64,000 nt of DNA from Sarea resinae (taxonomy: Eukaryota). The stretch lies in assembly GCA_026026165.1 (NCBI GenBank), contig JAPEUD010000065.1, forward strand, positions 62,001-126,000, written 5' to 3'. The notes below the pieces were generated by a model. That model was given only the letters and a program-made list of their open reading frames with translations. It was not told the DNA's origin and searched no databases. The position numbers and the translations under genes were made by a program. Positions 22,095-61,554 of this stretch are shown here, piece after piece. The stretch's first letter is position 1, and every line of letters starts with the position of its first letter.

Positions 22095-24393
22095 TTAATT
22101 GGCGATGATATCATGCACGTCCAGGACCTCGTCGTCCTCACCGTCCCCGTTGCCCCCACTAAGGTCGAACGCGTCGCCTCCTTCGGCCGACTCATCGTCT
22201 AGGCCTTCGAAGATCATGAATTTCTCGTTTTTGGCATCCGCTGGGAATGGGGAAGGGAAAGTTTTAGTATTGGTTTGTGAATGTGAGATGAGAAGAAGAA
22301 CAACAAGAAGAAGTCAAGCGACAAGGACAACGGATGAAGGAAAAGACAATGGATTGAAAACCGTGGAAAAAAGGGGGAAGGAGAGGAAAAGTTGACTTAC
22401 TCTCATCAGGAATGACGTTGCCTTCCTGGACCTCACAATCCCTGAGCACAGACTCCTTCCCGATCCGAGACCTACGGCCTAGGATACAGCCATCAAGCTT
22501 ACACTTCTCGCCCACGACTGTGCCGTCCATGAGCAGACATCTCGTGAGACGAGCGCCGGCTTCGACCTTGCAGTTGGCACCGATGACGCTTTCTTTGATG
22601 ACGGCGCGCTCCTCGACCGTGACATTCTCCGCGATGAGACAGTCGCCGCGTGTTACGGTGCAGCGGGAGGCGAGGCCGGGGGGATAGGCAACTTTGGAGG
22701 CATGCGCGAAGGGGGACGCGAGTGTGCGGTTGCCGGGCCCAAGATCGTCGAGGGAATCGAGCTTGGCGAGACGTAGGGAGACGGTCAGGAGGAGGGCGGC
22801 AGTATCGACGCGATGCAGGAGGGTGGTCGATGGTGGCTGTGAGTGAGTGTATGCTAGCATGGGTGGGATCAGGAGTTTGGATTTGGGTTGTTGGGAGGCG
22901 GACGCGGACAAGGGGTGGAGTGTGGATCTGGGGTCTTGGACACGAGAGGCATAGTGGCTAGAAGGTTTGGAAGAGGAGTTATGATCACTGATGCCGCCGC
23001 CGAGCTGGCTGGTCCAGGTCGAGCTCATGCTGCCGACGTCAATGTCTTCTTCGATGAAGGTACTATTGCCCATATTGTTCTCATCTGCGTCCTGCTCTTC
23101 GGTGCTGTCGAAGACGTCGCGTAGACCGAGTTTCTCGCCCAGGCCATCCTGCCAGCCTGCTTTGGCCCACCAACCGACAACATCCTCAGCGATACTGTCC
23201 ATCTTCTCGTTGCGCTTGACCATGTCGAGGATCCAATAAGGGAAAAAGTAGATGTGTGCGTCGCGATGAGTTGTGAGCATTTTGACGTTAGCGTGCTTAC
23301 GGAGCAAAGAGTGGCGGACTGGGAAGGACTTCTTCTCTTCGGTGATATCTTTGAGAGTGTCGGTTGGGATGGAGTAGACGAGGTGCGAGAGATTCTGGCG
23401 GTGCGAGCCGGGAGGTATGGAGACAACGGGGGCGGGAAGGGGCGAGGTGGCTACGAAGTCGGTTTCTTCTCCTTTGACACCACCGTCACCTTTCGTTTGA
23501 TACCAAACACCGAGGCCACCTCTTCGTCCTCCCTTTTCGCCTCCAATGCTCATCTTGTGGAGTGACATCTCGGAGGGAACGCCACTGGCACCTCCTAGTC
23601 CGGCTTGCTGAATCATCCATAGTTCGAGGAAAGCTTCTCCTCCAATCTCGCAGACTAAGTCGCATGGTAAAAGTAGGAAGTCTCCAACGATCTCCTTTTG
23701 GACCTCCGGGAGACGGAGGATTTCGGCGGTCCCCGTGGTCTGAGTGAGATCTCTAGGAGCGATGATGTCTGGCTTCGGTAGGGGTAGAGACGTGAGATGT
23801 GGGTTCTGAGAGAAGGCGGTTTCTAATGCTGCCGCTGATGAGGGTGGGGTTATGAGGCGAATATCTTGAGTGGGTTTTTAGCTTACAATCAAGGCAAATC
23901 GAGGAACGCTATGATTCGATAAGAGAGGAAGCCATGAAGAGAGCATTGCACGCGGAATGCACATATTACATCCACAAGGAAGACGAACGGGCTATCTTCT
24001 AGCCCAAAAGAAATTTAAGGAAAGCATCGCGCAGTCACAGTCTATAGATCCCAGAGCAAACTGACACCGAAATAAAATGGCTATGTGGTTCAAAGAATTT
24101 GACGCTCTATCAAAAATGGCAAAGAACATGGAGATAGGCCCCGCAGCCATCTCTAAGCAGTCATGAAGCAAATCAAACAGCCGCAGAAGCACAGGCAAAT
24201 GACAGGACTTACTAGTAATGCCGAGTCGATAGCACCATTCCAGAGGATACCAGACCATAGGCCTATTGGCGATCGGCACCAGAGCTTTGGGAAACTCATC
24301 CGGAGACGACGTGAAGGTGTTTAGCGATACACCTGGGCCGCATAGAATGAGGGCTTGAAAGCCCGCCGATGGCACTGCCTGCGCATGTGGCAT
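22095..24393 (-). CDS. GCD1: Translation initiation factor eIF2B gamma subunit
   Basis: FQALILCGPG...PKALVPIANRPMVWYPL (NTP-transferase-like) plus C-terminal hexapeptide repeats (ESVIGANCKV, GCILGRRSRIG). Last exon DAKNEKFMIFEG...IIAN*. Confidence 0.93.
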
Positions 24394-25758
24394 GGTTAAG
24401 GACACTCAGATCAGACCTCAGGATGCCGCAAGCCTTCTCTGCAGTGATCTATTCTATCAAATCAGCGCCATTCATATCGATGGATGAGGCTCTTGACGTC
24501 AAATCGTGCCGATTTGGGGCAGGCTACGATCAGTTTTCCAATTTTCAGCACGGCTGATCCATGCCGACGATAGATAGAAGTTCAGAGGCGAGTCACCATA
24601 TCTGTTCTTGCACTTACTATGATTTCAGCGGCACATGCGGCTTTGACATCAATTTTAGGGATTGACAAATGTGGCTGCGCTTTTTCGGCGTATGGAGATA
24701 TATTCCAGTGTCTTGATCAAGGCTCAGAACGTGATTGGCTCAGTGGAGTTGAATTTCGAGATTCGCAAAGGCGCTGAGTCATCATACATCATTCATCATC
24801 CGTCATTCATCCTGCGAGACAGACCCTCCAGCTACAATGCACATGCTTCGTTTTCGACGACGAAGATGCCGGTCGATATCAATAGTCATTGAGCCGTTGA
24901 GTCGTTGAGCCATTATAGTCTAGGTCCTTCGGCTTTTCCTCATGGTCTCTGATCTCTGGTCACCCCCGTGTCTGTTGGAGCGAGATGAGTGCGCCGAAGC
25001 ATAAGAAGGCATTTGAGCCTTTAGGGTGGTCTTTCAAAGGGACATCAGCTCTGGCACCAGCATCCCCGATATCTTACTTTCAAGTCAGAGAATGGTCTAG
25101 AGGTCTTGTGCTGTCTCGCGCACAAGCTGGGTATCTCTTCCCAAATTGGATTCCATGATGGCCACAGCATAGACGATCCAGACCTCTTAGCCACTGTCCC
25201 TCGCCCTGCCTCTGTCCTCGTTTTCATCTGCCTTGCCGAAGCCTCTCGATGTCTCAGTGTGAGAGGTACGATCCAATGATTTTGGCGCACATAGACAATC
25301 GATCATGATGATGCAAATCGCTCTTTGAAATGCCGGATTCACCCAATATCCATGGAGGAGGCGCTATTGATGAGTACTATTACGTACGTAGTTCTGCGTA
25401 AGATTCCATGGACGATGGAAACAGAGAGTACCTATCCAACGCTCATCAATGTACCAGATTCAATGTGCAATTCTCAAAGACACGTTCATGATTCATGCAA
25501 AAGCTCCATCTCGAAACGGTGAGAAAACCCCCCACCTCGATCGCCGCGGAGGGCTGGCGAATGATTGGCGAGTGTGGATGTTTCCCGACCACGGCGACCA
25601 GCGACCAGCCACCTCCACATCCATGTCAACAAAGCTGGCCTCTCCCGGGGTCCACAGGTCCACCAACCACCACCTCAGGATACAGCTCGCCTTTTCCATC
25701 CCCATACGATTCTTGATGATAATTTGAGGCGTTGGGCTTGGCAACAACGAAAGTGCAG

Positions 25759-27192
25759 ATGTCTTTCTCTTATGATCGATACGAACGCCAGCGTCGCCGG
25801 CAGACCTATGGCGGCAGGAGTACTCTTGGATACTGGGTTCCTCTCGTACTCAGCGTGACCGTCGCAACCATCGGCGTAGCTGCCTGGATATGGAGTGAGC
25901 GTCGCGATGATGATGACGGCGATGATGATTACGACAGACGCGAAGGCGAATATCGCGACCAAAGAGTGCCGCGCCCGTATGGACCCGGCGACGCTGCCGG
26001 ACCGCCCGAGACGGATTATGCGTACCGACGAGAGACAGAGACCACACAAGTCGAAGATGAGGGCATGTTCTCCAGAGTGTCGGGAGCGCTACGGCGAACT
26101 CCCAGCCCTCAGCAGATTTTTGATAGCGCGAGAGGTAAAGTCGCGGCCGGAATGACAGCAGCTGGCGCGGCGGTAGGAGGAGCCTTGTCGTCGATACGGG
26201 AAGAAGATAAAGATGACTTTGGCGATCACTCGCGATGGTCCGAGGAGGCGGAGAGCCGCCAAACGAATGTCGATGTGCAGTCGACTCAACGCGCGCGAGA
26301 TATTGCTTCGGATACCGCCACGCCTTTGATGCCATCTGCCCGTCAAGGAGGCCCTTCTCAGTCTCGTGGAAGTAGCAGGAAGAGGACTGTGGCAGTGGTC
26401 GTTTCTGCAGATAGTGAGAGTATCACCGAGGCTCACGATATCAATGACTACGAGCATGCAGTAAGCTAGACCATAAGCTCGAACATTGCCCACAAAAGTG
26501 CAACGCTTGCTAATCTAAGATGGGCGACACAGTCGATACTATCGCACCTTTCCCACCACATCAATGCAGACTCAGCCACGATTTATGTCCTGATCTACGT
26601 CCCAGATCTGAAACAGCACCCTCTTTCCTCCCATCCTACTCGCACAGCTCCATCAATCACTTCTTCTTACTCCAACATTGGTCAAGAAGATCTACAGACT
26701 CCCAACGAAGAGGCAGAGAAGCCTCTATCCACGGTTGACCCGATTCCTCTGAGCTCTCCATCTCCACCTTCGCGCTTGCCGGAGTCTGCTTCCCCGTTCT
26801 TTAGCGCTCTGTACACGCAGGCGCAGACTTTAGTCGACAAGGAAACAATGATCCTTCCCTTCACCACCAAGACGGGCCACGTGAATCTGCTGCGCCATCT
26901 CGCACCTGAAGTCGTCTACATCCAAGAATCGCTCTCGGGTGAGGATGGGGACGCGATATCGCAGGTATCGGGATGGGTAGGGCAGGTGGTTATCGTCGTT
27001 GGAGATGAGGATGGGCATGGGGGATTAGTGGATAGTGAGGACGATTCTGGAGCCGCTGCGCTTTCGGGACAGCACAAGGGAAACAGTTGGTGGGAGAAGG
27101 GCGATCGGGTGGGACTAGGAAAGGGAATCGAAGTAGTGGAAGGGCTAAGGATTGGAGAGGACTGGGCAAGGAGAGTCGGGGGTAAAGAGTAG
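25759..27192 (+). CDS. Pex22-like peroxisomal membrane protein
   Basis: N-terminal TM GYWVPLVLSVTVATIGVAAWIWSER, LRRTPSPQQ, HLAPEVVYIQESLSG. Intron 26461-26532. Family call recalled from fungal Pex22-like proteins. Confidence 0.7.
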
Positions 27193-27828
27193 GGCGTCTT
27201 GTTGTCTTTCTTGCATTGATCTTGGAACATTGTTTTGAGGATTGCCTTGAGATGGAGGATGAATCACGCCATGAGGAGTATAGGGGTCCATACTTTGATT
27301 TGCTGAACTGATTAATTCACGTAACCAATTTCACTTAAGAACATTGCTAGATTCATGAGAAGGGCATATAAATGTTATCACCTAAGGTATTGTGAGAGCA
27401 GTCAAAAGCTTAGATAGGTACCTTACACAAGGTAGCAAGTACCAAGGTACCGAGGTGCCTCCCGTTGCCTTATTGACCTCACCAGCACGTGATATCGTAT
27501 CGGATCGCATCTAGCCCAATTCGGGCGCATCCAGACACGACTCCATCACGTTGAGCAGACAGACGACGATGCGATCTTGAAGAAGCTGCGCTGCGCTGCT
27601 TGGTGCTTTCGAACCTTGCCTCTACCTCTTGCTGAAGCCGCGGATGCTGGTCTGTCCAAGGTGACCGATTTCGCCGTCTCTCTCGGCGCGCATACCTCTC
27701 ATCATTACACATGTCGCTGGGGTCGAACTCAGTTTGCAGAATTGGCTTGTCGAGCGGGTAGTTGCATCGTCGGCTTCCGAGGCTGTTGACCTCAATATCG
27801 TCTCTGTGGGGAGTCTCGAGCCGTCGTT

Positions 27829-30802
27829 ATGGCGACGACATTGTCAACCAAGGCGCCGCAACCCCACCCAAAGATGAAGCGGCCTCCACCTTCTTCTGCG
27901 CAGACTTCCGTCAATGGCATCGGCGCGTCAAAAGGATCAGTGTCACCCTCCTTGAATTCAAAGAAGCCCCCATCCGCGGCGCAACATCTGGCCAATGCGG
28001 TCTCCACAGCAGGCGCCAATGGGGCCGGACAGCGGGTCAGCAACCGCCAACGGAGAGAGCCGCAGCGACCTGGAGATCCTCAGAGGCAGCTCAAGAATGG
28101 TGTGGGAACCGGTGCGGATGGATTGGATGGTGACCGCAGAGCTCTCAAGGAATTACCTCCTCGACCCTTCGGTATGTTTGCGCGCTTGCTTGACACTCCT
28201 ATATAGCCTACTAGGGCTCCCAAAGAATACAGATGCTAATGCTGCCATCGTAGTCAATACCTCAGGACATATCCTTCGGAAGTACAGGGGTAGTCCTCCA
28301 TCTCTAATTCTTCATCTCCATCCAACGCACTTCAGATTTGACCAGCAAGATGGAAGTTTCGGTTACAATTCGCCTATGAAAGTTATTCTAGAGCACATCC
28401 GTGCTCAGACAGTTCCTCATGATATGCTCGAGGAGCTCTTTGCTTCCAATGTTAGGTTTTACGACAGTGAGTAAAGCCATGCGGATAGCAATTGAATGCG
28501 ATATCCGCTTACCGTATTGCCAGACTGCCTCATTGTCCAGATTCATGATCACCGATCTGTCTCCACCCCCTCAAGCAATGCATCCTCAGGATCATCCTCA
28601 GATGATAAAAGCATCCCTTATTCAATACACAACTATAATGAACACTTGACGCCATCGCCATACGTGCCATTCCCCATTCCCGCCAAGTCAGATCCTGCAA
28701 AGGAGCAAAATGGACGGACCAAAGCAAGTACCCAAGAGGCCTCGCCTGAAATGAAACGTAAAACAACCATTCAAGGGAAAGACTCTATGCCAGCCCCAGC
28801 CCGACAAAAGGATGGCCAAGGCAAGTCTGCTCCCCTTGGACCGAGGGTCTTTACTACTGTCTTACATCCAACGGCTCTCTCTCTTCTGGCGGAGATGACT
28901 ATCTACGCTACCACACCGGATACCCGCGGTTCCAACAAACGACAATATTCAGCTTACGCAATGAATTCGTCGACTCCAGTTTCAGCTACAGGACCTCATC
29001 CACCGACTCCTCTGACTGCCGTTCCATCAACCCCTATCGGTGGCGGCTTTCCTCGACCTAAACGACAGAAGATGATGCTTGATGATCGATCCTTCCATGA
29101 TTTCGAAGCAAAGGTTCTTCTAGGAACGTCCGCCGGATTGTATCTCGATCCAGTGGACGGCCCGGCAGAAGCCCAATTACTCCTTAAGGCCTTGAAGGAT
29201 CCCTTACATGAAAGTAAACCTCCTCCGCCCAAGGCTCGAAAGCGTACCGTTGCCGAATTGGCTGCGGACGAAGCGCAAGCCGCGGAAGAGGAACGCTTTA
29301 TGCTTATTATGGACGAACGTCTTGCGCCTGCATCTGCCGGAGCAGCTGCGGGAGTAAAGTCTACGACAGATGGACAGAGTGGAGGCGCTTCATTCGAGCC
29401 CAGATTTGCACGATTCAAAACTCTGGAGAATATTAAGATACAGCATGAAGAGAGAGAGAAGCAGAGGAAAGAGAAAGAAGCGCAAGAAGCGGCAACAAAG
29501 AGGCAACAGCAGGAGCACATGGAAAGGGAGAGGAGGAGAGAATTCGAAGAGAAGCAGAGGAAAGAGCAGCAGATGAAGGAGATGCAGCAGCGCCAGCAGA
29601 CGCATGCGCAACTTGCTCAGCAAGCAAAGGCGCAACAGCAGGCGATCCATATGCAACAAAGCGGCATGATCCCGAACGTCCAGCAACAACACCTTCAGCA
29701 AGTCACGCAAGGCCAGCATTCTTCTCCTGTTGTCCGACAGCATACTCCGCTCAACTCATCTCCTCTTGTTGGAAACGTTATAGCAAGCCATCCTAGCGTG
29801 CCAATCAACGGTGGGACCCCGACCCAGGGAGCTGGAAGTCCTCGTCCACCCTCTGTAACCCAGCATGGACATCCTGCAATTTCGGCGGCAATGGCTCACC
29901 AAATGAGTCAGCAACAGAGCCAACAAGGACCAAGTCGACGTGGCACACCCCAAATGACCCAGGGTACTCCCAACATGCAACATGCAACACCTGTTATGCG
30001 CCATGTAACACCGACACCGCGAATGAGTCGAGCAAGTCCAGTAGCTGGTTCTGTAGCTCATACGCCCGTAATGAACCACAGCATGATGGCAGGCACTCCA
30101 CAAATGCACGCTGCCCAATTGACGCCGCAACAGCAACAAGCTTATATTCAGCGCCAACATGCACAGCAACAGTATTTGGCGCAGCAACAACAACAGTTGA
30201 GGGCCGCAGGAGGCCCGCAACTGACGCCTCAGCAGATCGCCCAGTTTCATGCCCAGCAGCAGCAACAGGCCCAACAAGCTATGCAGCAGCAGCAACAACA
30301 CCCAAATCAAACACAATACCAGCAACAGCTCGCCCGCCAGATGCAACAGCAGATGGCTGCCGCCGCCCGGCATGGTGTCCAAGCAGGTGCAGGAGGCGGA
30401 GGGCAAGCAGGAGCAGCAGCAGGAGGAGGCATGCAAATGGGCGCTATCAGGGCCAATAGTGTGAACACACCTAACGGTCGGCCCATACAGCAGAATCCGC
30501 AGAATCCGCAGGTCGTGCAAATGCAAATGGGGCAGCGCGCGTGGATGCAGCGGCAGATGGCGCAGCTACAAGCTCAATTCGGTAATAACATTCCCCCGCA
30601 ACATATGCAACGATTTACACAGCACGTGGCTATCATGCAACAACAGCAGCAGCAAATGATCAACGCAGCACAGATGGGGAGAGGAGCCAGACCTATGATG
30701 CAGCAGCAGCAGCAGGGACAGCAGGGACAGCAGGGACAGCCGCAGCAAGGCCTACAGGGGGTGCAGGGAATGCCTCAGGGGAGGGGTGCGGCGATGCAGT
30801 AG
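27829..30802 (+). CDS. SPT20: SAGA complex subunit Spt20
   Basis: HILRKYRGSPPSLILHLHPTHFRFDQQDGSF...TVPHDMLEEL...FYDNCLIVQIHDHR; Q-rich C-terminus. Introns 28172-28253 and 28467-28523. Confidence 0.93.
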
Positions 30803-33303
30803 AAAGTGTGCTTATGTTGGGCTGGGATGATGGTAAATGCTTTCCGTCTGTGTCTTGAAGGCGTACTCTGAATTTACACGGGCTGGGGATGTTTGATGAT
30901 TAGACGTCCGTCCATCGGGGTTACGCTTACGGTGTTTATTCATTTGGTCCGGTCCGGCCTGGTTTGGTTTGGTTTGGTTTGGCATATTATCTGTCCATTT
31001 GAGTCTGTTTCTCTTCCTTATTTGGTGCCTTGGGTTGTTTGGACTGCTTTGCCAGCTTGGGTGATTGGGAGAGAGGGGGGTTTGGGGGTGGTGCAATTTT
31101 TGGAACGTCGATGGTTGGTCCTTCATGCGACTCTTGCTACGACATGTATTATATGATTTTCTTGATTCTCGTCCTGAATACATACTCACTGGTAACCAGA
31201 GCTCGGCCAGACCACGATCAAGAGAAGTAGAGACTCTCTCAAGGTGTCAGATGATAGAACTCGAGATAATAGCCTCGATCGACTATCATTGCCTGACTCA
31301 CGTCTAACCACAGTCTGCAAATAGAGCGCGCAATCTCAAACCGCATCCGCATCTACCATCGACTAGGGGGCAAGGCGAGAACTTAGACTCCCAATTTTTC
31401 GTATTAGTCTATCAAAGCCTCGAGCTCCTGTGACCGGCGCCGCTGCAGCGGCGCCAGTGTCCGTACGAGAACATAGAGATCGATCCAAATGCCTACGGGG
31501 AGCAGAACTACTCACTGCTATGCGTACTCACACTACCTAGGTACAATTCCCAGCGTCCACAAAAAGGTGAACGCGTCATGCTTTCCTTTTTCCTTTCTTC
31601 TCTTCCTATCTAAATTTCCACCATTATTGTTGGGTGTTCCTGGAGACGAATCAAGGGGAGGCAGAGCGCGCCCTGCCCCGTGTGTCACTGTCAACGCCAA
31701 TGTCAATGCCGATGTCAACGTCACAATTCCCGCGTGTTTAGGGAAGGATGGTTGGGGCTTGTGGAATTGGGTTCAATTGAATTGAATGGATGTATGGATG
31801 GTGTCTAGAGATGAAGATGGGATTTCGGGACGACCACGCTCACGACGCGTAGATGGGCTCGAACTTAGATCTGCGCACCATGATACTAACCAAATACCTC
31901 ACGCTCTGGAAGTGAGTAGCTTAGTCCTGGCTTGATCAATGAATGCCATCTGGACGCCTCCCCTCTTTGAAAGTTGAGAGGAAGGAAGAAGGGAGGAGTT
32001 TCGCGTGGGGAGGGGGGGAGGGGAGGGAAGGGGCGGCGGGATCCGAGGTGGACCGTGGAAGAAAGACGAGCTAAGTAAGGCCTACCTACCTACCTCACCA
32101 TATGCCCCACTGGCCCCCCGGGCCCGAGGGGAACGGACGGCAAGCAAAGCAAGGACCACCGGGCCAAACTAGAAAGATGAAGATGAATTCCCGAAATCCC
32201 AGATCTGCTTATCAATTGCTTCGTATTATCTACGGAGGAGGGTGCAATCATCTGGATTACACAGCTGCTCATATCCTCCCGAGGAGTTAAAGAAATCTCT
32301 TTTTCTTTCACACGAAAAAGACGCGACGGCTGGACTGAGGATAGACTCTAGGAAAGATGAATTAGCTTCGGCAGATGGAAGTGAGGGTTGGGAATTGGAT
32401 GGTCTAGTCTACGAATTCGTCGTCGATCATTGAGGGTGTTAGACTTGAACTCGGCATCAAGGCGCTGATGGCGAGCCACTACACCAAGATCGCACGAAGC
32501 TTCTCAAACACCTGACTCTCTCTCCATCGGCCGGCGCGACCATTTCGAGACATGACAAAGACATGCGGAAAGCGGAGCGGGGGAAAGGCTTCAGCAGTCC
32601 AACGGATCTGGATTGAACTTAAAGCTACCTACATGGTATGCTATGTTTCATCTTGCATCGTGCTGGCTGATGGCCTGCCGCTGCGCCAACCTCGAGAGAT
32701 TCAGAGAATGAAAGCTCAGAGATATATTGATTCTTCACGATCAACGCTGGACGAAGGCAGTATGTGCCGAACGTAGCAGGCTCTCGGACTCCACAACTCC
32801 ACATCTCCACCTCTCCGCCTCTCCACACCTCTACATGTCCCACTTCGGCGTCATTATCCGCGCGTCTGATGGCGGGCCCCTGCTCCAGTGGTCTACTCTA
32901 GCAGCAAGCCACCATCAAGGAAGCCGGAAGCCAACATGAACGCCTCCGGAATAGCCCTAGTAGTAGACCTGGTACAGGTAGGCGGAATGGAGAGGAAAGA
33001 TGCGCAGGTGTCCCGATCGCCCATCTTACGAGGTATTGAAACCAGGGCACTGCGGTCGCATACCTGCATTGATGCCTGCATACCTGTACGGATGGCGACA
33101 GAATACTTGACCACGTTCGCAGCTCAATGCCTGTCGGCCTGCCTGCTAGTCGAGCACAGACTTCTTTGGTACTGATAATAAAATGGAGTCTCTGCTGTGG
33201 GAGATGTCGCCGTCGATGAGTCGCGTCCCCACGGACCCACAGTCTGCTCTGCCTCCCCCTGCCCTGGCCTGCACTGGCCGGCCCTGGCAGATCTCTGCCA
33301 GGG

Positions 33304-36300
33304 CATTCTTATTATGATTACCATGACGACGATCATGGAGGAGGACAAAAACGGTTATGACCTCCAAGGTACGAGGCTAGGATGGCAATCATTGGCCTGG
33401 TGGATTTAGGTTCAAGGCAGGGGAGTTGCTAGTCTACTCTGTATGCTCGTCGCCTGGTATGGCGTGCATGCGGTAGCTTGGGTGCTTGCAGATGCTCCCA
33501 GCTGCTTGCGATGGAGGTACGAAGTACTTGGGTGGTCGATGATCATGATCGACGGCCGATGATGATCTCGGTAAGAGAGAAATGAGAGGATGAGAGAGGA
33601 TGAGAGAGGACGAGAGAGTCTCTCCACGACTTACGTCACAGTGAGATCTCAGATCACCATCGCCCGCCAGCGATGAGATGACTACCTGAGGTGGGTTAGA
33701 ATCAACATGGATATCCGTGGATCGATGGATGCTGGCACCAGATGGGAAAGGAAAGTCCCTTCCAAGACAGCACGGGCTGGTGACGACGATGATCCTGATC
33801 ATGGTCGTCCGCTGATAGTCATGATGATAACAGCACTACGCGGGGCCATCTCCATTCATCGTCTGGATTCATGTTCGTGCATCTCCACTGTCTCGCCTTC
33901 TCGATTGGGCATGACGGGGGTGGAGGGACCGGTGGCAGCGCGATCGAATAGGCCCGACCGATATCGAGCTGGAGATCACTTGCTGCATACTTGGTACCTC
34001 TCACCAAATGAGAGACATCGAAGTGTGAAACCGAACCCTATCGAACGCTTCTTCTGGGAGCTTCAGCGTCCTGAGGGAGCCTTCCGAGTGCCCAACGGTC
34101 CTTGGCTGCCTCGATGCCGTGGTCACAAGCCGTGAATCTTGGGACCAGAGTGACTGACTACAGAGTGGAGAGGGTGAGAGGGCGAGAGGACGAGAGAGTG
34201 GTGATTGTCCATTTCCGGTCATTCTTTTGTGTGGTCAGGGGTCTGAGAGCAGCTGAGCCGAGATGTCGGGCCCGCTAAAGTTGCTGCACATCGTCGTCTG
34301 TCTCGATGAGCATGGACTATTAGGGGATCCACATTGACACCGGCAAAGACTGTGGTAGGTGAGGTGTCATATTTGTTTCCCCAAACCCCGCTTGGGCCAG
34401 ATCCTTTACCCTCTCGAAATGAAGAAATTGGCTTCGAATCATTTCATTCAGGCGCAACAGAGTCCCGCCCGCTCGCTCGAAATTGGGCAATTCGAGACGA
34501 ATCACGGGTGTTTCTACTGAGATTATGTCTACCGCCATCGAAAATCGAATTAGCATTACTAGCAATGGCGCAGAATCGCGGAAGCGCGTTCGCCAGTGCT
34601 CCTCGGAGCATTTTCTCCTTCAGCCTTTTGATTTTACGTTACTGGCGTTGTTGTCATGGACTTTCGTCAAGAACATTCTCGATTGTCGATGTTAAGATAT
34701 GCTGTTCAAGCTCGAGGTGATGGGACCTGGGCCCTCGCAGTAGTTCTCTGTGGCTATCCATTAGGGCCCGTTGTTATTCTCCGGTTGACGTTCCCGGGGG
34801 GGGGGGGCCCCAGTGCGAATCACTAAGGTGTCTTGTTTCAGAATTCCCTAGGGTGGCAGAGGGCGACAGTAGCTGAGAGGCTAAGCAGCAGAGAAGTGGG
34901 ACTTGCCCAAAGTGGCCATTCGCCTCAAGTGGCTCGCTCGAAGCTCGGATTCGGCAGCCGACAATGGATGATGCTATACATGCTACGTACGATCTGCAAC
35001 AAAGTGGCTGACGCATTGATCATCCACGGAACAGCTCAAGGGAAATGTCAACCGGCCACTGATTGGACTTCAGACTCCCTTCCAAACCAAACCAGGAACG
35101 GCTGCAGGCTGCAGGCTTTTAACCCACAGATGTGGCCAGGTCCTACGAGCCTTGATCTCATCATTCCCCAGCTCGAGCGAGGCCTGTGCCACATTCCTGA
35201 CACCTCATATCATTCCACACTTTCTGACTTTAGGTTTTTGGAGATGCACAACTCTGCATCTTGAGCAGAGAGATCTTTACCAAAGAGGATCCTTGTGAAT
35301 CCGTATCTGGGAACCCCAGGGGCCTAGTCAAATGCCGGGTATCTCCGCCCTATCCGCAGGATCGATTCTATCGTATTGGTCGAGCAGGTGATTCGCGTCT
35401 GCACGGACAAGATGCTAAGGTCAGAATATAGACGGATAGCTCTGCAACAGCTGCTGACTGAGGCGAACTAAAGCTTCCCGGCACAGCGGCCGCGCCTTGT
35501 CGAGAGCGTTGAAACTCTGTTAAATGCAATGCTGGTCATTGTTCGCATAACGCAGGTCCCAAATCCTGGACATGGCTGCACATTCCCACCCTGCCGTTTA
35601 CAAGTAGTAGAAAAAAAGTTCGTCAATCGACGGCAGATTTCGGCCGTGATGATATCAGTCCCGTGATAACAAAGTCTGCAGCACCGCAGGAGCCCCAGCC
35701 TTTGACTTGTTGCTTCTGCAACTTGCTGTCAAAGTTTGGGACCGAAGGCTTTCATACGATCTGTAGAGCATTCCCAGCGGAAGAGCATCCGAATCTTCGG
35801 AGGTCTGCGATCCTGGCCGAGACTGGCACACCATTACTGCGGAAGGCGCTTTTTGCAAAAGGCTGATGTTTCAATGGACAGACCACTACCCCAATCTTCC
35901 TTGAGAAAGCGACCAGACCCTATCATAAAGGGTCGTTTGTCGTTCCGTGACAGCAGCTTCCGGAAACCACTAAAGCGAGGGGATCGAAGATTCTGATTCT
36001 TAAAGAAGGTGCAGTGGCCCTTTCTGGATGAGCTCTGAGACCCCATCTGCAAGGCCTCACATAACGAAAGAACCGTCCGAACGTCTCTTCTTGTTACGTG
36101 GATAAGAACTGTGCAGCCTTCTCTTTGGCCACGTTCAAAGAATCTGTCGTTCCTGAGTTATCGACTAAGATAGGAAGGCCCCCTTACAGTTTATCGTCCG
36201 ATCACCCTCTTTCGCCTGGGAACCACCTTTCTCTTCTCAACCCGTACCCGCCTCGCCGTGGATTAGCAAGCTCTGGCACTCTATTGCTTCTCACTCCATC

Positions 36301-36630
36301 GGCTAAAGTTGGTTCGAGACTCTTCGCCTCTATCCGACTCTATCAGAAACCCGTCACTGATATTCGGCGGTTACCACACCTTCTAACCACCTCCCCGAGC
36401 ACATTCCAACGGCTTCGCCTTGCTTTGCACCGCGCGATCGCGAACGCGTCTTGAAGACACCCGTCCAGTCATAGTATGTTCCACAAGGGTAGGTTCGAAA
36501 GAGTTTGAAGTTTCCAACGGCTCCAAGGTCGATCAGTCAATTTCGTTATCGTTGCTGATGTTTTATTTCCACTCAAAAATCCTTTGTCCTCTTCTTCATC
36601 CTTTTTCCGATTTTCATTTTCTGTCATTCC
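33304..36630 (+). promoter_or_regulatory. Cluster of CATTCY (AbaA/TEA-type) motifs upstream of and within the intron of the C2H2 gene
   Basis: CATTCY at 33304, 34220, 34674, 35162, 35192, 35211, 35581, 35769, 36402, 36625. Function is inferred. Confidence 0.4.
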
Positions 36631-38079
36631 TTTTACATCTTTCGCCCATCTGTCGACGTCTCTCCTTCAAAAAGCATATCTAGCCAACACCTTTTTTCCT
36701 TCTACGGTCAGCATTGATTGTCTCTGCCGATATCGTATACTGACCCATCGACAGGTCCATCAATAGCTAGAAATCGGCTTGGAGAGGAATACTCGGCCGA
36801 GTGCATCGAAGCCATGAGTAGGATTCTGAGAAACACAACTCGGATCGACACGCAAGGACATTGCTCTTCTGCTAGTTCAAGCTTCTCCAGCGCCGATCCA
36901 TCAACACCATCGCCCTCATTTTTCTACCGACGTCCGTCCATCGCCTCTTCGTCGTCGTGGGAGCCCGGCCTCTCAGGCCGCTCATCGGTCATCTCACCCC
37001 AATCGCCAGGCCCATCCACTCCCAAACGGGAAGAAGAGCTCTCGCCCGTCGATCTGTTTGCTGCAGAACCTTATAGTAGCTATTCTGCTGCCATGATGCC
37101 CAACACCCTTTCGGAACGAGAACTGGGCGAGGTGCTGATGCCGTTCAGCCAGCCCTTCGAGGACGTGGCCACCTCGGGGATTGGGGCTGCCTCCAAGAGT
37201 TTCCTCGACTTCGACTACGGCGAATACCAGATGTCGTCGTTTGGCCAGATGCCCAACCCTTTTCTACAAGACAGTGCTCGTTTCGTCGCCGCGTCCTCGA
37301 CTCCGACCTACGATCCGGCGCTCTTCAGATTCGATCTCACACAAGCGTGCGACTTTTCGTCGCCGCTCGAAAGCGCCTTCACGACCCCAACCAGCGAGCG
37401 GCATCATCCATCGAGAACGGTGGTGCCATCGCAAACCTGCGCAGAGCCCATCGTCGGCACATCACAAACGCCCGGCGTTGTTTCTGCAGTGGCGACCTCA
37501 TCAGCACCAACAGCAACGACCTCGTCCTATCACTCCTTCTACGACCGTTCCAACACGCTCAACCCAGACTCGCCCTCTTCCTCAATGACAGGATACAGCC
37601 TCACGCCTTCCCCGACACGAACACCCTCTCGCCACCCCTCCACCCGCAGCACGCGGCCTCAGCACCACCAGCAACACCATCATCAACAACATCACCGCGC
37701 CTCCCTCTTCTCCAATCCGCCCTCCAGCACCTCCTCCACAACGCGGATAACTAAACTAAAAAAGCCGTCGCGCCGGGCAACACAAATGACGCGATATGGT
37801 GTGGAAGCGGAGATTGTGGGCACGAACAAAGTGCACAAGTGCAAATGGTTGAACCCGGAGGACGGAAGCGCGTGCGACAAGGCGTTTCAGCGCCAAGAGC
37901 ATCTCAAGCGCCATGAGAAGACGCATGATGGCAAGAAGCCGTTCAAGTGTCTTGTGCCTGGTTGCCCGAAGAGCTTTTCGCGATCCGATAACCTGAAGAG
38001 TCATAATAATACCCATGACCCTACCAAGCAGGGAGGACGCAACATGAAGGTCGAGAATCATCGGAGCTACCTGCAGTAG
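36476..38079 (+). CDS. BrlA-like C2H2 zinc-finger transcription factor
   Basis: Two C-terminal fingers [19 protein letters not shown] and [25 protein letters not shown]. Mini-exon ATGTTCCACAAGG (36476-36488), intron 36489-36754; second in-frame ATG at 36814. C2H2 is certain; brlA orthology is probable but unproven. Confidence 0.85.
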
Positions 38080-39389
38080 GGGTCATTATTATATTGTGTA
38101 CGGGAATGGATAGTTTCTATCACAAACACACATACACACACACACAAAGGCTTTCCACGGCTGCATATTATGAACGGCCTGCCTACCTGCCGGCCTAACC
38201 CACTCAAAACTTTCGGATTGCTTCTATCTCGCCCACATTCCCGATGCCGTTTTCATGCTTCGTCATGTCCATTCAACACGCACAATTATATCATTACGAT
38301 TACATGTTTCATGTCTTATTACGCCGCGTGGCCGCGTCGCCACATCGCCCGCGTCCCGGTTGATGTCGTTTTCCCTCTTCTTCTTTGCCATTGTACTTCA
38401 CCACCCATCTCTTTTTGTGGATTTCGACTGACGAAAAAAAAACCTTTTTAAACCGGGCGTCCGTCTATACTTTGATATTTTGTGGTTGGTTCTGCATTTC
38501 CGGATTTCTTTTTACTCTTTCGTTTTCTGGTCGTGAATTAAATTGGTTGTACGTTAAGGCGTGATGTGATGGGCGAGTGGATTTCGTCTGTCTTGTTCGA
38601 CTGGGAGGATGAATGGAGGGATGAATGGAGGGGGGGAAGGAAGGAGGAAAGGTCTATATGGTATGTATGTATGTAATTCCGTACTGTGCGTTTGTTAGAG
38701 GCAGGGTGGAGGGGAAAAGGGACTGGGGAGTTCCTTTCTATCTGTCAGGTCTATAACTCTGGGACTCCCGCCTATCCACTATTTTCCACCTAGGGGGTTA
38801 CCTGACAACAGGCTCTGGGGAATGGACACCTATTTTGTTTCTCGTTCTTGTCCTGTCTGACTCTGTTCTCTTTTTGTTTTCTTTTTGTTTTTTTCTTTCG
38901 AAAAGGTTTTCGAGGGGGAAAATGGGGTGGGGCGGGCTTGTTATGTTTTCAGAGAATTTACTGTTATAGTTATAAAGTATAGCTTCAACTTGATCCATGA
39001 AACGTCACTGTGACAGTCACTGTTGCAAGCTAGTGAGATTGAGGTTGAGGTCTGAGACTGAGGTTTGAGATTTGAAGTTGAGATTTGAGATTGACGGTTG
39101 AGATGGGCTTTTATCCGGTTGCAGATTCCGCTCTTTTTGTCTCTGTGCGTCTGTCTGTGCTGTGTGTCTGCGTGTCTGTGTGTGCTTTCTCTGTACCATA
39201 GTAATGCCGTGCCGTGTTCCGTTATCTTATGTTGCGCTATATCTTGTTCTCATACAACTATTTCTTTCACCCAACCAACCGTCCATCCCATCCGTTTACG
39301 GACGGAAATCTCAACAGTACTGAACGCGAACATCTGCGCCCCCCCCCCCACCTTTCTCTCCCTGGCATCCCCACTAGACAAGGAAATGC

Positions 39390-45863: not shown

Positions 45864-46568
45864 CTATTTAAAGTAAAACAAAATAGAAAGCTCGACACTG
45901 TCGTAGGCAGCATCAAAAGAGCCCGTCCCAACCCCTCCAAAAGAATCCCACCTTCCTCGCCTTCTTCCCATACGATGGTCGCGTTGCATCCGCCCTCCAG
46001 CATTCCTATCGTATTCATGGTCGTCATTGGAATACGAGTCCAAGTCTGAGTAGTAATCACTATCAGGATCATAGTCATGCTGGGGTCCGCTCTGACCTCG
46101 GCCTCGGCCTCTATCTCTACCGCGCCGTCTCCGCCGACGTCTACCCCCAGCATGTGGTGGTGCCGGTCCTCTACCATGCAGTACATTTCCTGGCGCATGT
46201 TCCTGACCTTCCGCTGCAGCTTGGGCCTCCGGAGAGAGGATATCAGGCTCATCTGCCGGGGCTTCCGCGTCCCTCCCCGGATGGACATTGTCCCACGATT
46301 GCTCTTCTACGCTTGGTTCACCAGCTGCCAGCAACTGCCTAACTTCGCGTTCAGGTGCGAGCATCACATTGCCGTCATGGCAGTGGTAGTAGAACCCATG
46401 ATGAGGGTTCCCTGGTCGGATCTCAACGTTGGAGTTTTGCACAAGCATCAGGTCTCCGATTATGATGACATCGCCGTACTCATTGTACATTGGCCAGCAG
46501 CCCCCTTGTAGATTATGCCCACGGCGACGTAGAAGATGAAGTTCTTCGAAGAGGCCCTGACCAGACAT
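45864..46568 (-). CDS. Orphan R/D/G-rich protein, copy 2 (234 aa)
   Basis: Uninterrupted ORF; shares HxG(F/W)xYHC and DILSPEAxAAA with the adjacent ORF. Confidence 0.7.
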   Translation of the reverse strand: MSGQGLFEELHLLRRRGHNLQGGCWPMYNEYGDVIIIGDLMLVQNSNVEIRPGNPHHGFYYHCHDGNVMLAPEREVRQLLAAGEPSVEEQSWDNVHPGRDAEAPADEPDILSPEAQAAAEGQEHAPGNVLHGRGPAPPHAGGRRRRRRRGRDRGRGRGQSGPQHDYDPDSDYYSDLDSYSNDDHEYDRNAGGRMQRDHRMGRRRGRWDSFGGVGTGSFDAAYDSVELSILFYFK

Positions 46569-46906
46569 TGTTGCTGGGCGAATATCTATAACTTCTTTTC
46601 AAAATACCAGAGTTGGACGGGGGTATGTGGGATTGCATTGAAACAGAAATAGTGAGTGAAATATAGATAGTCCATGAAAGAGGAGGGACAAAGAGGAGGA
46701 AGAAGTGCAAGCAAATGCCATTATATGCCTAGCCACCCTGAGCATGCAAGTACGTGACTCACTCTCTGATCCGTGTAAAGCTCATTAATCGTGTCAAATT
46801 GCATCTAGGTTCACTGTATCTCAAGGAATTTCACGGACTGCGTTATTTGCACAAGATCATCTATATTCACTCAAAGCTGTCTCCTTATGACTTGCTACAA
46901 GAAAGC

Positions 46907-47698
46907 CTAATAGTAATCTTCGGGGTCTCTCCTGTATCTCGCTCTCTCGCGTCTCATACGTCGTGCAGACCGCTCCCGCTCTTCGTTCTCATCACTGTCA
47001 GAGCCGGAGTCGTCACTATAGTCAGATTCCGCCTCGACGTCATATTTTTGGTGCCGCTCCCTCCTGCGTCTCGGCTGTCTGTCTCCAGCGAATCGATCAT
47101 TTTCTAAGACACGCTCTGATCTGCCCGCTGCTGCACGAGCCTCTGGAGAGAGGATGTCCTCTCCCTCTGCTATATCCTCTGCCTGTAGAGGGGCGGCTTC
47201 ACGGACCTCAAGCCGATCATGGGCCCTTACGGCACCTCTAGGTTGAACTTCATATCGCGGTGGCTCATCGTCCAGCAGGGCTGCTTGGGCCGCTGCTAGA
47301 TTTCTATTTGCCTGGTCAAATGCAAGGTCATGGTAGCCTTCTCGCCGATGACTATGTCTCCGTTGGCTTCTTGCTTCGCCGTATCGATCTGCCTCTGCAC
47401 CTCTGCTACTGTACTCCAGTCGGGCTTCTCCTGTACCATCGCCAAGCAGCATTGTGACTTCGTACGGATGGGCGGGTATCGGGCGACGGCCAGCGCAGTG
47501 GTAGTGCCACCCATAATGATCATCGTTTCGAGCGACCTGCCAATTACATGCAAGCGGCATTCCATATCCTCTAGAACCAACACGTCTCACTGCGAGAAGC
47601 CCACCTGGGACTGGGAAGACCGCACACGGCGGCCTTCCATATTGACCGAGGAGACGTCGCTGACGACGCTCTTCATAGCCGTAGCCTTGGCCGTACAT
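46907..47698 (-). CDS. Orphan R/D/G-rich protein, copy 3 (263 aa)
   Basis: Uninterrupted ORF, paralogous to copy 2. TATATAAA on the minus strand at 47823-47830. Confidence 0.72.
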   Translation of the reverse strand: MYGQGYGYEERRQRRLLGQYGRPPCAVFPVPGGLLAVRRVGSRGYGMPLACNWQVARNDDHYGWHYHCAGRRPIPAHPYEVTMLLGDGTGEARLEYSSRGAEADRYGEARSQRRHSHRREGYHDLAFDQANRNLAAAQAALLDDEPPRYEVQPRGAVRAHDRLEVREAAPLQAEDIAEGEDILSPEARAAAGRSERVLENDRFAGDRQPRRRRERHQKYDVEAESDYSDDSGSDSDENEERERSARRMRRERARYRRDPEDYY

Positions 47699-49490
47699 TC
47701 TGGTAAGAGCAGTGAGTGTCTAATATGTTTTTGATAATTAGAATGGGCAAGCAAGGAATCCGGGAAGTCGAGTTCTCTGAGAAAGAAGTAAGATGGAGAA
47801 GGAAAGAGGGCCTCCGAAGAGCTTTATATAGCTGAGAAGCTAGGTACTTGCGGTATTGATATGCTCAGATTCACTCACATCCCTCGGCTTCCTAATTACT
47901 ACAGTAGGCCGAGGAAAACATCATTCCTAATCACGCAAAGCTGTATCACTTATACTTCTAGCTATATCAAATTTCTTATCTTATGATGCCGTCTTGCCTT
48001 TGCAGTCCAGCATCAGAAGCTTGATCTTCCCATTGTGCTACTGTTTTGTAAAAAGGGGTCAGAAATGGGAAGCACAAAGAGACTCAGCGCTCTAGCTCTC
48101 GAGCTTTGTTTAGCTCGGATCGCAGAAACCAAATGAGCGAGATTTGTAGAGAAAGACTAGAACGAGCAGTGGGAGCTTCTCCAAGATCAGCGGGCACAGT
48201 TTGGCGATGCTGATGAAATCCCTGCTGACCTCCTCAATTCGTCACGAGTGTTCGAATTCGGCGGGGATTCGAATTTGGTGAGCCAGTACCATTGACAAGC
48301 GCGTTGATTCAAATAGCTCCGGCTAAACGTTTGATGAGTGTGGACCCAAGTGCATGACTGGTCGAGATATACAGGCAATTGCCGCACCAAATCCCGTCCA
48401 GCGAACTTGTCAATGATGAGATAGAGTGAATACAGCTGGGTTCAAAAACATAAATACACTTGAGAACGACTCTCCTCTGCTGGGGATCGAACACACAACC
48501 TTGAGAGCACGAAGTACACCAAGTACCGGCAGGTATCATGCCCCTTCCCAAAACGGCAAATTCACAACAAAGGCCTGCAAAAAGCTCAGGTCCCCTTGTT
48601 GGGAACCCTACGAAAACCTTTCGGGTTTCCTGAGGAGGACAGACTACGAATCTTAAACTCCCGTTCTACGCTCGAGTACATAGGAAAGGTCTCTTTCTCG
48701 ACCCTTTACATTCGACACTTTCCATAAGGGCGAACCCCGAGATTATGCCACAACCCTAACTCGTTGGAAAAGAAGAGTTTATTTGAATCTATATACCCCC
48801 CAGCGCCAGCGCCACTGCGCATGCTCCGTTACAAGTTCTGGATACCTTATCAGCCCACTAAGGCCTTCACCAGGCCAGCCCCAATAATATTTTTAATACT
48901 TTAGTCCTTTCGTCGTCAACGCGTTTATACGTGATCTAGCAAGTCGCTACCTCTGCAATAGCCAAGCTATCGTACTGGCTTTCTGAGATAATTTGATGCC
49001 AAACTACCTATGTATAACCCTCTAGATAATTTATTTCTTAAACTTGAACTTATATCCAGTCAACTCGAGTAGTAGAGCTGGGAGGTTTCTTTTTCTTAAA
49101 TCTCTTTTAGGAAATTGATTTCATAGTATGAGAAAATTAAGTTTTGCAAAGAGCTCGATAATGAAAATTAACTCTAGAAATGAATATCTTTACAATGTAG
49201 TCATTTGTTGAAAGATTGATCGTGACAAAAGACGAGTTGACGGTAATAGGCGCTTGGAAAAGATGATGCTATGTTGCACCTTATCGATAAGGAGCATCAA
49301 CACGCGACACAAGCGCGTACCACTCTCTGTTGTCTCGCTCTTTGGCGCGTCCCCACGGCTTCCGACGGTCGCATCTCTGCGAGTGTTTACGAATCTATTT
49401 CCAAAGTCGCCTTCTTATTTTCCCGGCGGTAAAGACAGTGAGAGGACGCTGAACCTTTTCATCAAGGAGATTTTCCCGTTCCCCGCAACA

Positions 49491-58289: not shown

Positions 58290-59350
58290 ATGGCATCGCT
58301 ACCAGAGGGGAACCCACCACTCGGCGAAGAAGAATACCATTCGTCAGAGGACGAAGACTTTAATCCTGAGCTCGCAGCCGCTCACGTCTCAGACAGCTCC
58401 GATGATGAGGACACTGCCCCCTCTGGCAAATCGTCCAAGCCGAAGAAGCGCAAGCCTACCACCGCCGCCGAAGACGAGGAGATTGATTTCGAAAACTCGG
58501 GCGATGAAGCTACGATACGGAAGGGAAGACGGAAGAAGCGGAAGAATGGCAACAAGGCCGACGAGGATGATGAGGAAGGTGGGGAGGGCGGGCTGATAAA
58601 AACCAGGGCCCAACGAGCAGTAGAGTATGCTTGATCTTATCTGGAGTAGTTACGGCGACTGACTCTTGCGTCCTCTCCAGAGAAAAAGAAAGAAAGCCAC
58701 TCGTAAGCGCAAGTGGTGCAACGGTCGACGTAGACGCCCTATGGGCCAGTATGACCACGAAAGCCCAACCTACCCGGTCAGATGAAGCCGCGAAGTCCTC
58801 CGGCAAACCCTCGAAAGAGTCCGAAGCCGAAAAGGAGGCCTCTAAAGAAAACCGATCGGCTCCAGACGACGAGCACAGTACAGGGGGTGGCACAAATGGA
58901 GTAGGCGTGAGGAAAGAAGCAGCAGCGAATGGCGAGGACATGATTACCATCAAACGCACATACGATTTCGCAGGCGAGACTATCACCGAAGAAAAGGTTG
59001 TTCCTAGATCTTCGGCAGAAGCTCGACTCTACCTCCAGTCTCAGCAGAATCCACCCTCGCAATCGAACAAGCCACCGCTTCGTCGACCAAAAAAGCGGGC
59101 GTCCATGTTTGAGCCCAACCCCAATGGTGTAGTGAAGGGTCTACCGCCAACCACCGCGCAACGAGGACCCAAGCTCAACACGATCGAGAAGTCGAAGCTT
59201 GATTGGGCCGGGTTTGTGGATAAGGAGGGTATTGCTGATGAGCTGGACGAGGCCAGTCGTGCGAAAGGAGGCTATCTTGGTCGGATGGATTTCCTGGCGC
59301 GTTCGGATTCGAAGAGAGAGGAGGAATTGAAAAAGGCAAAGCATAAGTGA
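58290..59350 (+). CDS. SWC5: SWR1 complex subunit Swc5 (BCNT domain)
   Basis: Acidic N-terminus EEYHSSEDEDFNP, ITIKRTYDFAGE, KLNTIEKSKLDWAGFVDKEGIADEL. Intron 58625-58680. Confidence 0.93.
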
Positions 59351-59486
59351 AAAACGGACGGAAAAGGTGCATTACGACTATTGTGTAGTAATTCCAACGC
59401 CGGGTATCAAAACATCTCAATCTGAGAAATCCGAATCTCCTGCATGGTAATCTATTCGCCATCATCTCTTCTCCAATGGCCGGGAC

Positions 59487-61554
59487 CTACTGCTCGGGTC
59501 GAATCACTTTCACCTTCCCAGACCAGCATCCATGGGAGCACAACGCGTTCGACTCAGCAAAAGCTGCTCGTTCACTTGCTTGTCGACATGCCGCACGATC
59601 TCTCGAGAGCGCGAAGACGACATCACGCTGCCCTAATCTCTCGGCATTAATTTTCGCTTCATCAAAAGCATTAATTACTGGCTTTGGGCCACCTGCTTGA
59701 TCTCTACGATCATTGGCGAAGAAGGAAAAGTCTCCTTCTAGCGATTCTCGGAAGGTGGCACCCGCTACTATGGGGTCGAAATCATCTTCCAGCATCTCGG
59801 CGTCGGCCAATTCCAGGTGCACTTCCTCTAACAAGTCGGTCGGAGGAGAACGATCATGCGGTCTTAAGGCTCTCCCATGGTGCTGTCGTCGGGAGAAGCC
59901 GTTGGATGATGAGTTTGTTGCCTTTTTGGCTTCGGCCTCGGCCTCGGCACAAACGTGAATGAACGTCTGCAATGCCTTGGATATGAATCCCTTCTCGCTC
60001 AGAGATGGCACACCCGTCAACACTAGCTTTCTGATGCGCATCAGCGGGCTCCAGTGGACATTTCCTCTTTCCACGAGAGGCAGGTCTTCCAAATTACCAG
60101 ACCAGGATGGCCAACCCGTGAGGCAATCGCGATAGCTTACTGGCGACGAGACTCGATCGAATAATGCCGCGTCTCCTGTGACGATGTGATGGCTTATCCT
60201 AAGATAGTGCAGATTGCTAAAGGCGTTGTGATTGGTGGTGACGAGTGACGAGAGTATCTCTTGCGCTGCTCTTCCTTCTTCGTTCTGCTGTGACGTGGAT
60301 TGAGAACCCCATGGTCCTCCTACTCCTGTCCGCTGCTGTTTACTTGAAGCAACTCTTCCACAATCTAGAACACGAAGACGACTCGTTGCGATTAGAGCTC
60401 CTATCCCTGTGACGGTAACCCTATTTTCTGAAATGTAAAGATTCCTGATCCCCACGTGTCTAGCACCGCAGTTGCTAGCGTGATTGTCGATGCCTGTCGT
60501 ACCTTGACTTATCCGGCTCATAATCACACTCTCTTTATCCTCGTCCTCGGCCTGAAACTCGCATTCGTACCTTCCAGATGTGCCCCCTACCCGCTCATTG
60601 CTGTCATTACCGCATACTTGTCCTCGCAGTGCACCTCCAAGAGCCTGTTGCCCATCACCTACTCTTTCCTGTCCATCATACCCGGGTAGTTCCCTATCCA
60701 TGTTCCCAGCCCCGTCTCCATATCCCGGCGGGCCAAAACAATAATCCAGCAATGCCCCTACGCCCCGATCGCCCACCTCATTCCCCCTGACATCCAAGCA
60801 CCAAATTCGAGTCCCTAATCCACTAGCCAAAATCTCAAGACCCTCGTTCCCGATCCCTACATGCGCGAGTTTTAGGACTCGCAGCGATGAGAGTGAAGCT
60901 ATTCGTGTGAGAACGGATTTGTTGCGCGCTGAGGGAGTTTGGCATAGCGAGAGGTACGTGAGGGTCGGGAGGCGTGATAGAAGATTTAGTAAGACCGCTG
61001 GAGGAGCGGAGGAGTGCGCTAGGTTCAGGAGATCGAGCGTGGGTAAGGAGGGGTAGTTTCTCTGGGAATCAGCGAGGTTGAGCTGGATGGTGGTAGGTGA
61101 TGGAATTGATAAGGCGCGTAGCTTCGGGAGGAGAGACAAAATTGTGAAGAGGGGGGCGATATCTTCATTTTGATCGAACGGATAGGGAGAGAAGGGAAGG
61201 CTAAGACAGTAGATGAGAGACCGAGTCGGTAGGGACGCTGTTTTCTCGAGTATGCGAAGGAAACGTAGGAATTTCTCTGTACTGATTAGATTTTTCTATC
61301 CTGCAATCTCCACAACGGCGTGAAATGGACTATCTACCATAAGCTCGACTTATTGCTACCTCTTCATCGTCCACAACGACAAAGAAGTAAGGATTCCTCC
61401 AAATCTGTGGCGCACACTGCTCGTATAGATGGCGTGAGACCAGGCATGAGGCAAGGAGATCAGGGGTGCTAAGATGAGGCACTATCAGCCGCCACGGGTC
61501 CTTGGAGGTTGCGAATTCATAGCTTGGTGGCGGAGATGGCGCAGGAGACGGCAT
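59487..61554 (-). CDS. F-box-like / leucine-rich repeat protein
   Basis: N-terminal LIVPHLSTPDLLASCLVSRHLY..IW; LxxLxL repeats (LRVLKLAHVGIG, IWCLDVRGNEVGD, NLYISENRVT). One intron near 61280-61340, boundary approximate. Confidence 0.75.

Follow-up and report, generated by a model that had tools for sequence, protein, structure and literature searches.

A 64,000-nucleotide stretch of the Sarea resinae genome, referred to here as the window, carries a gene that is very probably an orthologue of brlA, as judged from sequence comparison. It is rather likely that this orthologue, found outside Eurotiomycetes, has kept the beta/alpha layout of brlA with both of its starts in use. Sarea resinae is placed in Sareomycetes (NCBI), and its asexual form consists, according to the available text of PMC9157775, of pycnidia with phialidic, rarely annellidic, cells. 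The main open reading frame of the gene (36814..38079, forward strand) encodes 421 residues, which is the form given in the public record (P0001), and ends with two C-terminal C2H2 fingers of the BrlA/Msn2/SteA type (approximately 37840-38016) followed by GGRN. The stop codon is followed by a long pyrimidine- and T-rich region with CA repeats (38080-39100), possibly a long 3′ UTR.

In Aspergillus nidulans, brlA-alpha starts within the beta intron, the beta form adds 23 residues and is held back by an upstream ORF (uORF), and alpha is under AbaA control (PMC8779605, 10.1101/627414, PMC12810187, PMC10253035). The window gene resembles this system in encoding a two-finger C2H2 protein with a common 15-residue stretch and GGRN, in having an upstream exon and intron that add about 23 residues, and in bearing a candidate uORF and AbaA-type sites. 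It differs in belonging to an organism outside Eurotiomycetes, in an identity of 25-28%, in lacking the Eurotiales C-terminal tail, and in an N-terminal extension unrelated in sequence. The second start and the uORF function proposed here are drawn from the analogy with A. nidulans.

Exon layout ahead of Met 36814

The coding part of the beta first exon (36476..36488, forward strand) is 13 nt long and begins with the ATG at 36476-78. It is followed on the same strand by a phase-1 intron of 266 nt (36489..36754), which opens with the donor GTAGGT at 36489 and is predicted to hold the alpha start, and by a 59-nt beta-specific coding part of exon 2 (36755..36813). A TACTGAC branch sequence lies at 36738-44, and the first AG 3′ of it is the acceptor at 36753-54. 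The spliced frame is open and encodes 445 aa, that is, 24 residues joined to the 421-aa ORF. Unspliced, the ATG at 36476 yields only a 10-aa ORF, and the single ATG within the intron (36558) opens a 41-aa ORF out of frame. There is little doubt, as far as the sequence allows a prediction, that this intron is spliced. The sequence-only reading had proposed the same mini-exon, donor, branch, acceptor, intron length, and 24-residue addition, and all its coordinates were right; a donor-like GTATGT at 36474 overlapping the ATG at 36476, as well as a TAG 12 nt 3′ of the intron acceptor that could serve as an alternative acceptor in frame, were absent from it. The donor at 36489, which fits the conserved layout, was preferred to a weak one at 36098 that would give a 657-nt intron.

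The intron had been called long for this genome, and this view is borne out by a genome-wide count with one splice pattern, which gave 872 matches of about 45-90 nt versus 244 in a bin of equal width at about 240-285 nt, many of the latter being chance pairings. Genome-wide counts were used because short-intron patterns within the 64-kb window alone did not exceed those in shuffled sequence. The intron had also been described as pyrimidine-rich, like a core promoter. The composition stands (65% pyrimidine); its value as a promoter sign does not, since the leader 5′ of the first ATG is pyrimidine-skewed too, as are A. nidulans 5′ UTRs (PMC4046813).

A metagenome scan yielded 39 loci (denoted L below), and 49 loci were covered in a later motif search; the first cluster of the atlas bears the name brlA. 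In four DNA runs, three near-identical fragments were seen, all of them outside the exon and the intron. Four distinct Eurotiales brlA loci are present, L011, L012 (=L015), L013 (=L014), and L016 (=L018), and L011 is 96% identical to a Penicillium record over 140 residues. In all four, the ATG stands in a 13-nt exon with a GTRAGT donor, the phase-1 intron measures 235-286 nt, its acceptor is 56-62 nt 5′ of the alpha ATG, and 23-25 residues are added; the corresponding values in the window are 13, 266, and 59 nt and 24 residues. The same exon size, intron phase, and range of intron length connect the window gene with the long-form records P0337, P0346, P0358, and P0385 of the Penicillium/Talaromyces type. 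Among 18 proteins compared, the Penicillium records P0337 and P0346 begin with the long N-terminus predicted from splicing, and long forms also occur in Aspergillus and Talaromyces records. The extensions of the window and Eurotiales proteins are alike in size and have a split codon at position 5; in sequence, the 24-residue extension is not conserved with respect to the Eurotiales ones. The earlier suggestion that about 23 residues are gained from an upstream exon and intron, as in brlA, agrees with the sequence, with 24 residues here and the exon size and phase of Eurotiales. The A. nidulans intron is termed a 5′-UTR intron in the available part of 10.1101/627414, whereas the window gene and the Penicillium records have the intron within the coding sequence itself.

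The intron, or an intron-like stretch, also recurs in a shortened or seemingly untranslated setting. L022, a divergent BrlA-like gene that we guess to be Chaetothyriales-like, has a 13-nt exon and a phase-1 intron of 178 nt, with 14 extra residues. Four further loci (L020, L025, L029, and L041) have an intron-like stretch of 278-292 nt ending 26-43 nt 5′ of the main ATG, and no in-frame upstream ATG was found before it. The persistence of the intron without the extension in some loci suggests selection on regulation more than on the peptide. Such selection would fit two starts and would equally fit a single promoter with alternative donors.

Two minor features of this region deserve mention. 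In the window (36474-36479) and in L020 (6741-6748), L025 (1733-1740), and L010 (approximately 613-620), a 5′ splice site and an ATG overlap; in L025 and L010 the spliced junction would itself form an out-of-frame ATG, while use of the 36474 donor in the window would delete the upstream start. In P0011 (Caeruleum), residues 8-18 align with the last part of the beta extension of the window protein, with Leu at the position of the alpha Met.

Leader, short cis-elements and the two proposed starts

The beta ATG is preceded by an ATG-free stretch of 445 nt (36031..36475, forward strand), which a beta-type transcript would presumably carry as its long 5′ leader and in which a count by eye found five CAT and no ATG. 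The last ATG before it, at -448, opens a candidate uORF of 25 aa (36028..36105, forward strand), a possible counterpart of the brlA-beta uORF by position only, with no sequence conservation with Eurotiales upstream ORFs. In L011, L012, L013, and L016, the last upstream ATG is situated between -380 and -483, and the ATG-free stretch before the first ATG spans approximately 375-480 nt in six loci including the window (377 nt in L022).

Near the end of the leader lies a conserved noncoding element (36402..36425, forward strand) composed of an AbaA-type CATTCC followed by GCCTTGCTT; CATTCY is given as the AbaA site in excerpts of PMC10253035 and 10.1101/829465. Next to it is a CGCG cluster (36431..36449) in which the StuA/APSES consensus (A/T)CGCG(T/A)N(A/C), taken from PMC10715145, is matched three times, the matches overlapping one another at 36436-36449. 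CATTCC, GCCTTGCTT, and CGCG repeats occupy the region 25-75 nt 5′ of the first ATG in the window and in L011-L013.

The pattern CATTCC-N0-20-CCTTGCTT has one match each in 11 of the 49 loci, all brlA-like and all on the gene strand: the window's own locus, L011-L015, L022, L038/39, L040, and L041. The matches in L022, L038/39, L040, and L041 are independent of the discovery of the motif, while L014 and L015 duplicate L013 and L012. The spacer is N2-9 in these loci, where the motif lies just 5′ of the donor, and it is 2 nt in the Penicillium/Talaromyces-type loci sharing the module (L011-L013) versus 9 nt in the window. The pattern read backward as a control matched none of the 49 loci, and the forward pattern had no match in eight paralogue loci or in yeast- or basidiomycete-like loci. 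It is also missing from the brlA-like L010, L016/18, L020, L025, L029, and L042/47, and in L031 it occurs with one mismatch; some contigs begin too near the gene to include it. Three matches to the GCCTTGCTT form are present in the 25.5-Mb genome, the other two lying near unrelated-looking ORFs, and 0.03 matches of the shorter CCTTGCTT form are expected in shuffles of the window.

In L020, L025, L029, and L041, CATTCC and CGCG precede the donor of the intron-like stretch. Within the intron, the window has an AbaA-type CATTCC at 36625-30, and an intronic CATTCY is found likewise in L011, L012, L013, L016, L020, L025, and L041 and is absent in L022 and L029. AbaA-type elements may thus surround the putative alpha promoter, the CATTCC of 36402 and that of 36625 both having counterparts in other loci. 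Broader comparisons gave little: nhmmer models of Eurotiales noncoding regions left the window region unranked in six of six runs, word-sharing scores (not corrected for composition) were modest, being reached by about 1% of control windows upstream and 0.2-0.5% in the intron, and the pattern CATTCY..CGCG..CGCG in the window alone (one match versus 0.44 expected) was not significant. Noncoding conservation amounts to a few short words and not an alignable block. Another stretch, resembling TGTTT(T)ATTTC..TTTGTCC and located near the 5′ end of the intron (36558-36575), is common to the introns of L011-L013 and is not significant alone; it could be a TATA-like or forkhead-type site.

The same genome has a single abaA-like gene (L052:2700-3860, G000:C57), with six CATTCY in the 1 kb 5′ of it and 17 in 7 kb versus 9.5 expected. 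The CATTCY cluster, situated upstream and in the first exon, suggests conserved autoregulation. BrlA-type sites are not enriched near this gene (5 versus 6.6 expected).

By analogy with A. nidulans, it is fairly probable that a second transcription start lies inside the intron 36489-36754. A far-upstream promoter, its start site being presumed, would produce a long-leader transcript, probably held back by the candidate uORF at 36028-36105 if the latter functions as in beta, and splicing of 36489-36754 from this transcript, as predicted from the conserved layout, would give the 445-aa form. AbaA- and StuA-type sites at the leader end and in the intron might then give rise, within the intron, to a second transcript that is left unspliced and would encode the 421-aa form. 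By the same analogy, the second transcript may be the feedback step during the formation of phialide-like spore cells. The lack of ATG in the 445-nt leader and in similar stretches of five other loci suggests a long transcribed leader after the uORF, and for motifs inside a long transcript the simplest role would be activation of a start further downstream, within the intron, as reported for A. nidulans.

It is possible, though we consider it unlikely, that the gene is a brlA orthologue with a real conserved intron and a single promoter, the motifs serving that promoter or intron-mediated enhancement, and that the long and short proteins arise by leaky scanning, by retention of the intron, or by splicing from the 36474 donor, whereby the upstream ATG is lost. 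The donor-like GTATGT overlapping the first ATG, the mere 10-aa product of that ATG when unspliced, the purely untranslated appearance of the equivalent intron in L020, L029, and L041, and the generic nature of pyrimidine-rich 5′ regions all agree with this explanation. However, ATG-free stretches of such length in six loci suggest that the motifs are in a transcribed leader, which fits a downstream start better, and an intronic start is reported for A. nidulans, whose order has the same layout. A two-start precedent outside Eurotiales is the Metarhizium robertsii “BrlA”, likened here by name and description, which has two start sites according to the available text of PMC8779605; unlike in the window, both of its transcripts carry the same ORF and differ in the 5′ UTR only.

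Probable orthology and gene neighbourhood

The identity of the 421-aa protein to Eurotiales BrlA is 25-28%, in agreement with the strong protein divergence noted from the sequence at the outset. Nine matches to the ORF were found in the genome in all, and the others comprise the fingers or little more. The best full-length named relatives come from Pycnora, Lasallia, and Caeruleum, with partial ones from Geoglossum and Thelocarpon. Outside the fingers, comparison of the Eurotiales profile with a profile of the window protein plus its relatives (hhalign) gave a probability of 93.8 and E of 1.7e-7; as single proteins against the Eurotiales profile, the window protein scored E 0.003 and a paralogue 0.14. 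A reciprocal search from L011 ended in a tie between the C67 paralogue (1.1e-9) and the window gene (1.3e-9), and among cluster representatives, multi-finger proteins dominated the result of a profile search. Exact look-up matched none of six locus proteins and four of four protein ids. Neither the window protein nor its lichen-fungus relatives have the C-terminal tail that follows GGRN in Eurotiales, a trait of Eurotiomycete-type members that is at most putatively family-defining.

The neighbourhood offers a second line of comparison. The upstream neighbour of the window gene is spt20 (27956..30802, forward strand), which also adjoins brlA in L013/14, where it is downstream, and in L016/18, where it is upstream in the same orientation; spt20 linkage is thereby shared with the Penicillium/Talaromyces-type L013 and L016, the latter lacking the CATTCC..GCCTTGCTT..CGCG module common to the window and L011-L013. 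The eIF2B-gamma gene (22264..23877, reverse strand) is linked to brlA-like genes in L039, which adjoins both it and a homologue of the window 25723 gene, and in named records. In Pycnora, eIF2B-gamma and a BrlA-like protein have consecutive locus tags (006083, 006084), and the linkage is indirect in the Lasallia and Geoglossum umbratile records, where the two genes are found on contigs of the same length. In Geoglossum simile, the two genes are on contigs that differ in length, which counts against linkage there. The window eIF2B-gamma is 100% identical to a Sarea resinae record, and its next-nearest relatives are from Pycnora, Candelaria, and Candelina (65-66%). L022, L042, and L047 adjoin a BCNT-domain gene homologous to that at 58574 in the window.

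The different brlA neighbours of separate lineages all occur in one block of the window (22264-30802, 36476-38079, and 58574-64000, with eIF2B-gamma, spt20, the BCNT gene, and the 62886 gene), and the window may therefore approach the ancestral gene order. Between spt20 and the candidate uORF, an unusually long region of about 5.2 kb (30803-36027) has no convincing gene and contains short purine repeats near 33580-33620; such an upstream region would fit a heavily regulated gene.

The orthology proposed above is based on the neighbours common to brlA loci, the homology outside the fingers, and the confinement of the motif to brlA-like loci; the brlA identity put forward in the sequence-only reading is backed by exon size and phase, common neighbours, and common cis-motifs. 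It appears improbable that the gene is instead a paralogous C2H2 gene of the Msn2/SteA-like finger family, descended from an ancient duplicate that already had the intron. The low identity, the tied reciprocal match, and published surveys finding BrlA in Eurotiomycetes only would be expected of such a paralogue, whereas the single copy, the common neighbours, the identical exon size and phase, and the absence of the motif from all eight paralogue loci of the genome argue against it. Horizontal transfer from Eurotiales was rejected in view of the low identity and of linked relatives in several lineages.

A search for the layout, with strict limits derived from the four Eurotiales loci, picked out 5 of 13,246 ATGs. 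These belonged to the four loci and to the window gene, so that the background count is 0 of 13,241; under loose limits the number rose to 87 of 13,246. It is thus very improbable that the upstream ATG and splice signals occur by chance and the gene starts at 36814, as the 421-aa recorded protein and the frequency of the loose layout might suggest, because the strict layout is confined to brlA loci and recurs in L022, outside the defining set.

Range and age of brlA

BrlA is described as limited to Eurotiales or Eurotiomycetes in excerpts of PMC5307856 and PMC6231087, probably with additional occurrence in some Chaetothyriales and Endocarpon, and is said to have emerged late in the available text of PMC8396895; Botrytis and Sclerotinia lack an unambiguous orthologue according to part of PMC3158057, while Histoplasma is said to keep BrlA in the accessible part of 10.1101/829465. 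Automatic names already label some distant proteins BrlA. These automatic names, Histoplasma, and the suspected cases of Chaetothyriales and Endocarpon are partial precedents and make the present finding less surprising. No paper was found that traces brlA outside Eurotiomycetes by exon layout, synteny, or the CCTTGCTT motif, and supplementary ortholog tables could list such genes.

We lean slightly towards the view that brlA is not a Eurotiales invention, and that a single fast-evolving locus from an early Leotiomyceta ancestor, with its intron and cis-module, has persisted widely. The locus would have an intron of 180-290 nt just 5′ of the main ATG and an AbaA/StuA/CCTTGCTT module at the donor, and it would have been kept in Sareomycetes, lichen-forming classes, and other divergent lineages, hidden by protein divergence from BLAST and reciprocal-hit surveys. 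The 25-28% identity and the tied reciprocal search may explain how BLAST surveys missed such genes. If this is true, the two-start feedback design predates the Aspergillus conidiophore. The late emergence of BrlA serves as a model case of regulatory rewiring, on which the window locus bears. Candidate orthologues can be recognized by their exon layout, their neighbours, and a short cis-module where protein similarity fails, and with them the question of the range of BrlA becomes directly testable. The comparison further draws attention to CCTTGCTT as a conserved motif of brlA loci in need of explanation.

Elsewhere in the window, two adjacent ORFs (45864-46598 and 46907-47719) are similar in make-up, with the His/Cys stretches HHGFYYHCH and HYGWHYHCA and acidic and Arg-rich tails, and look like a diverged tandem pair.
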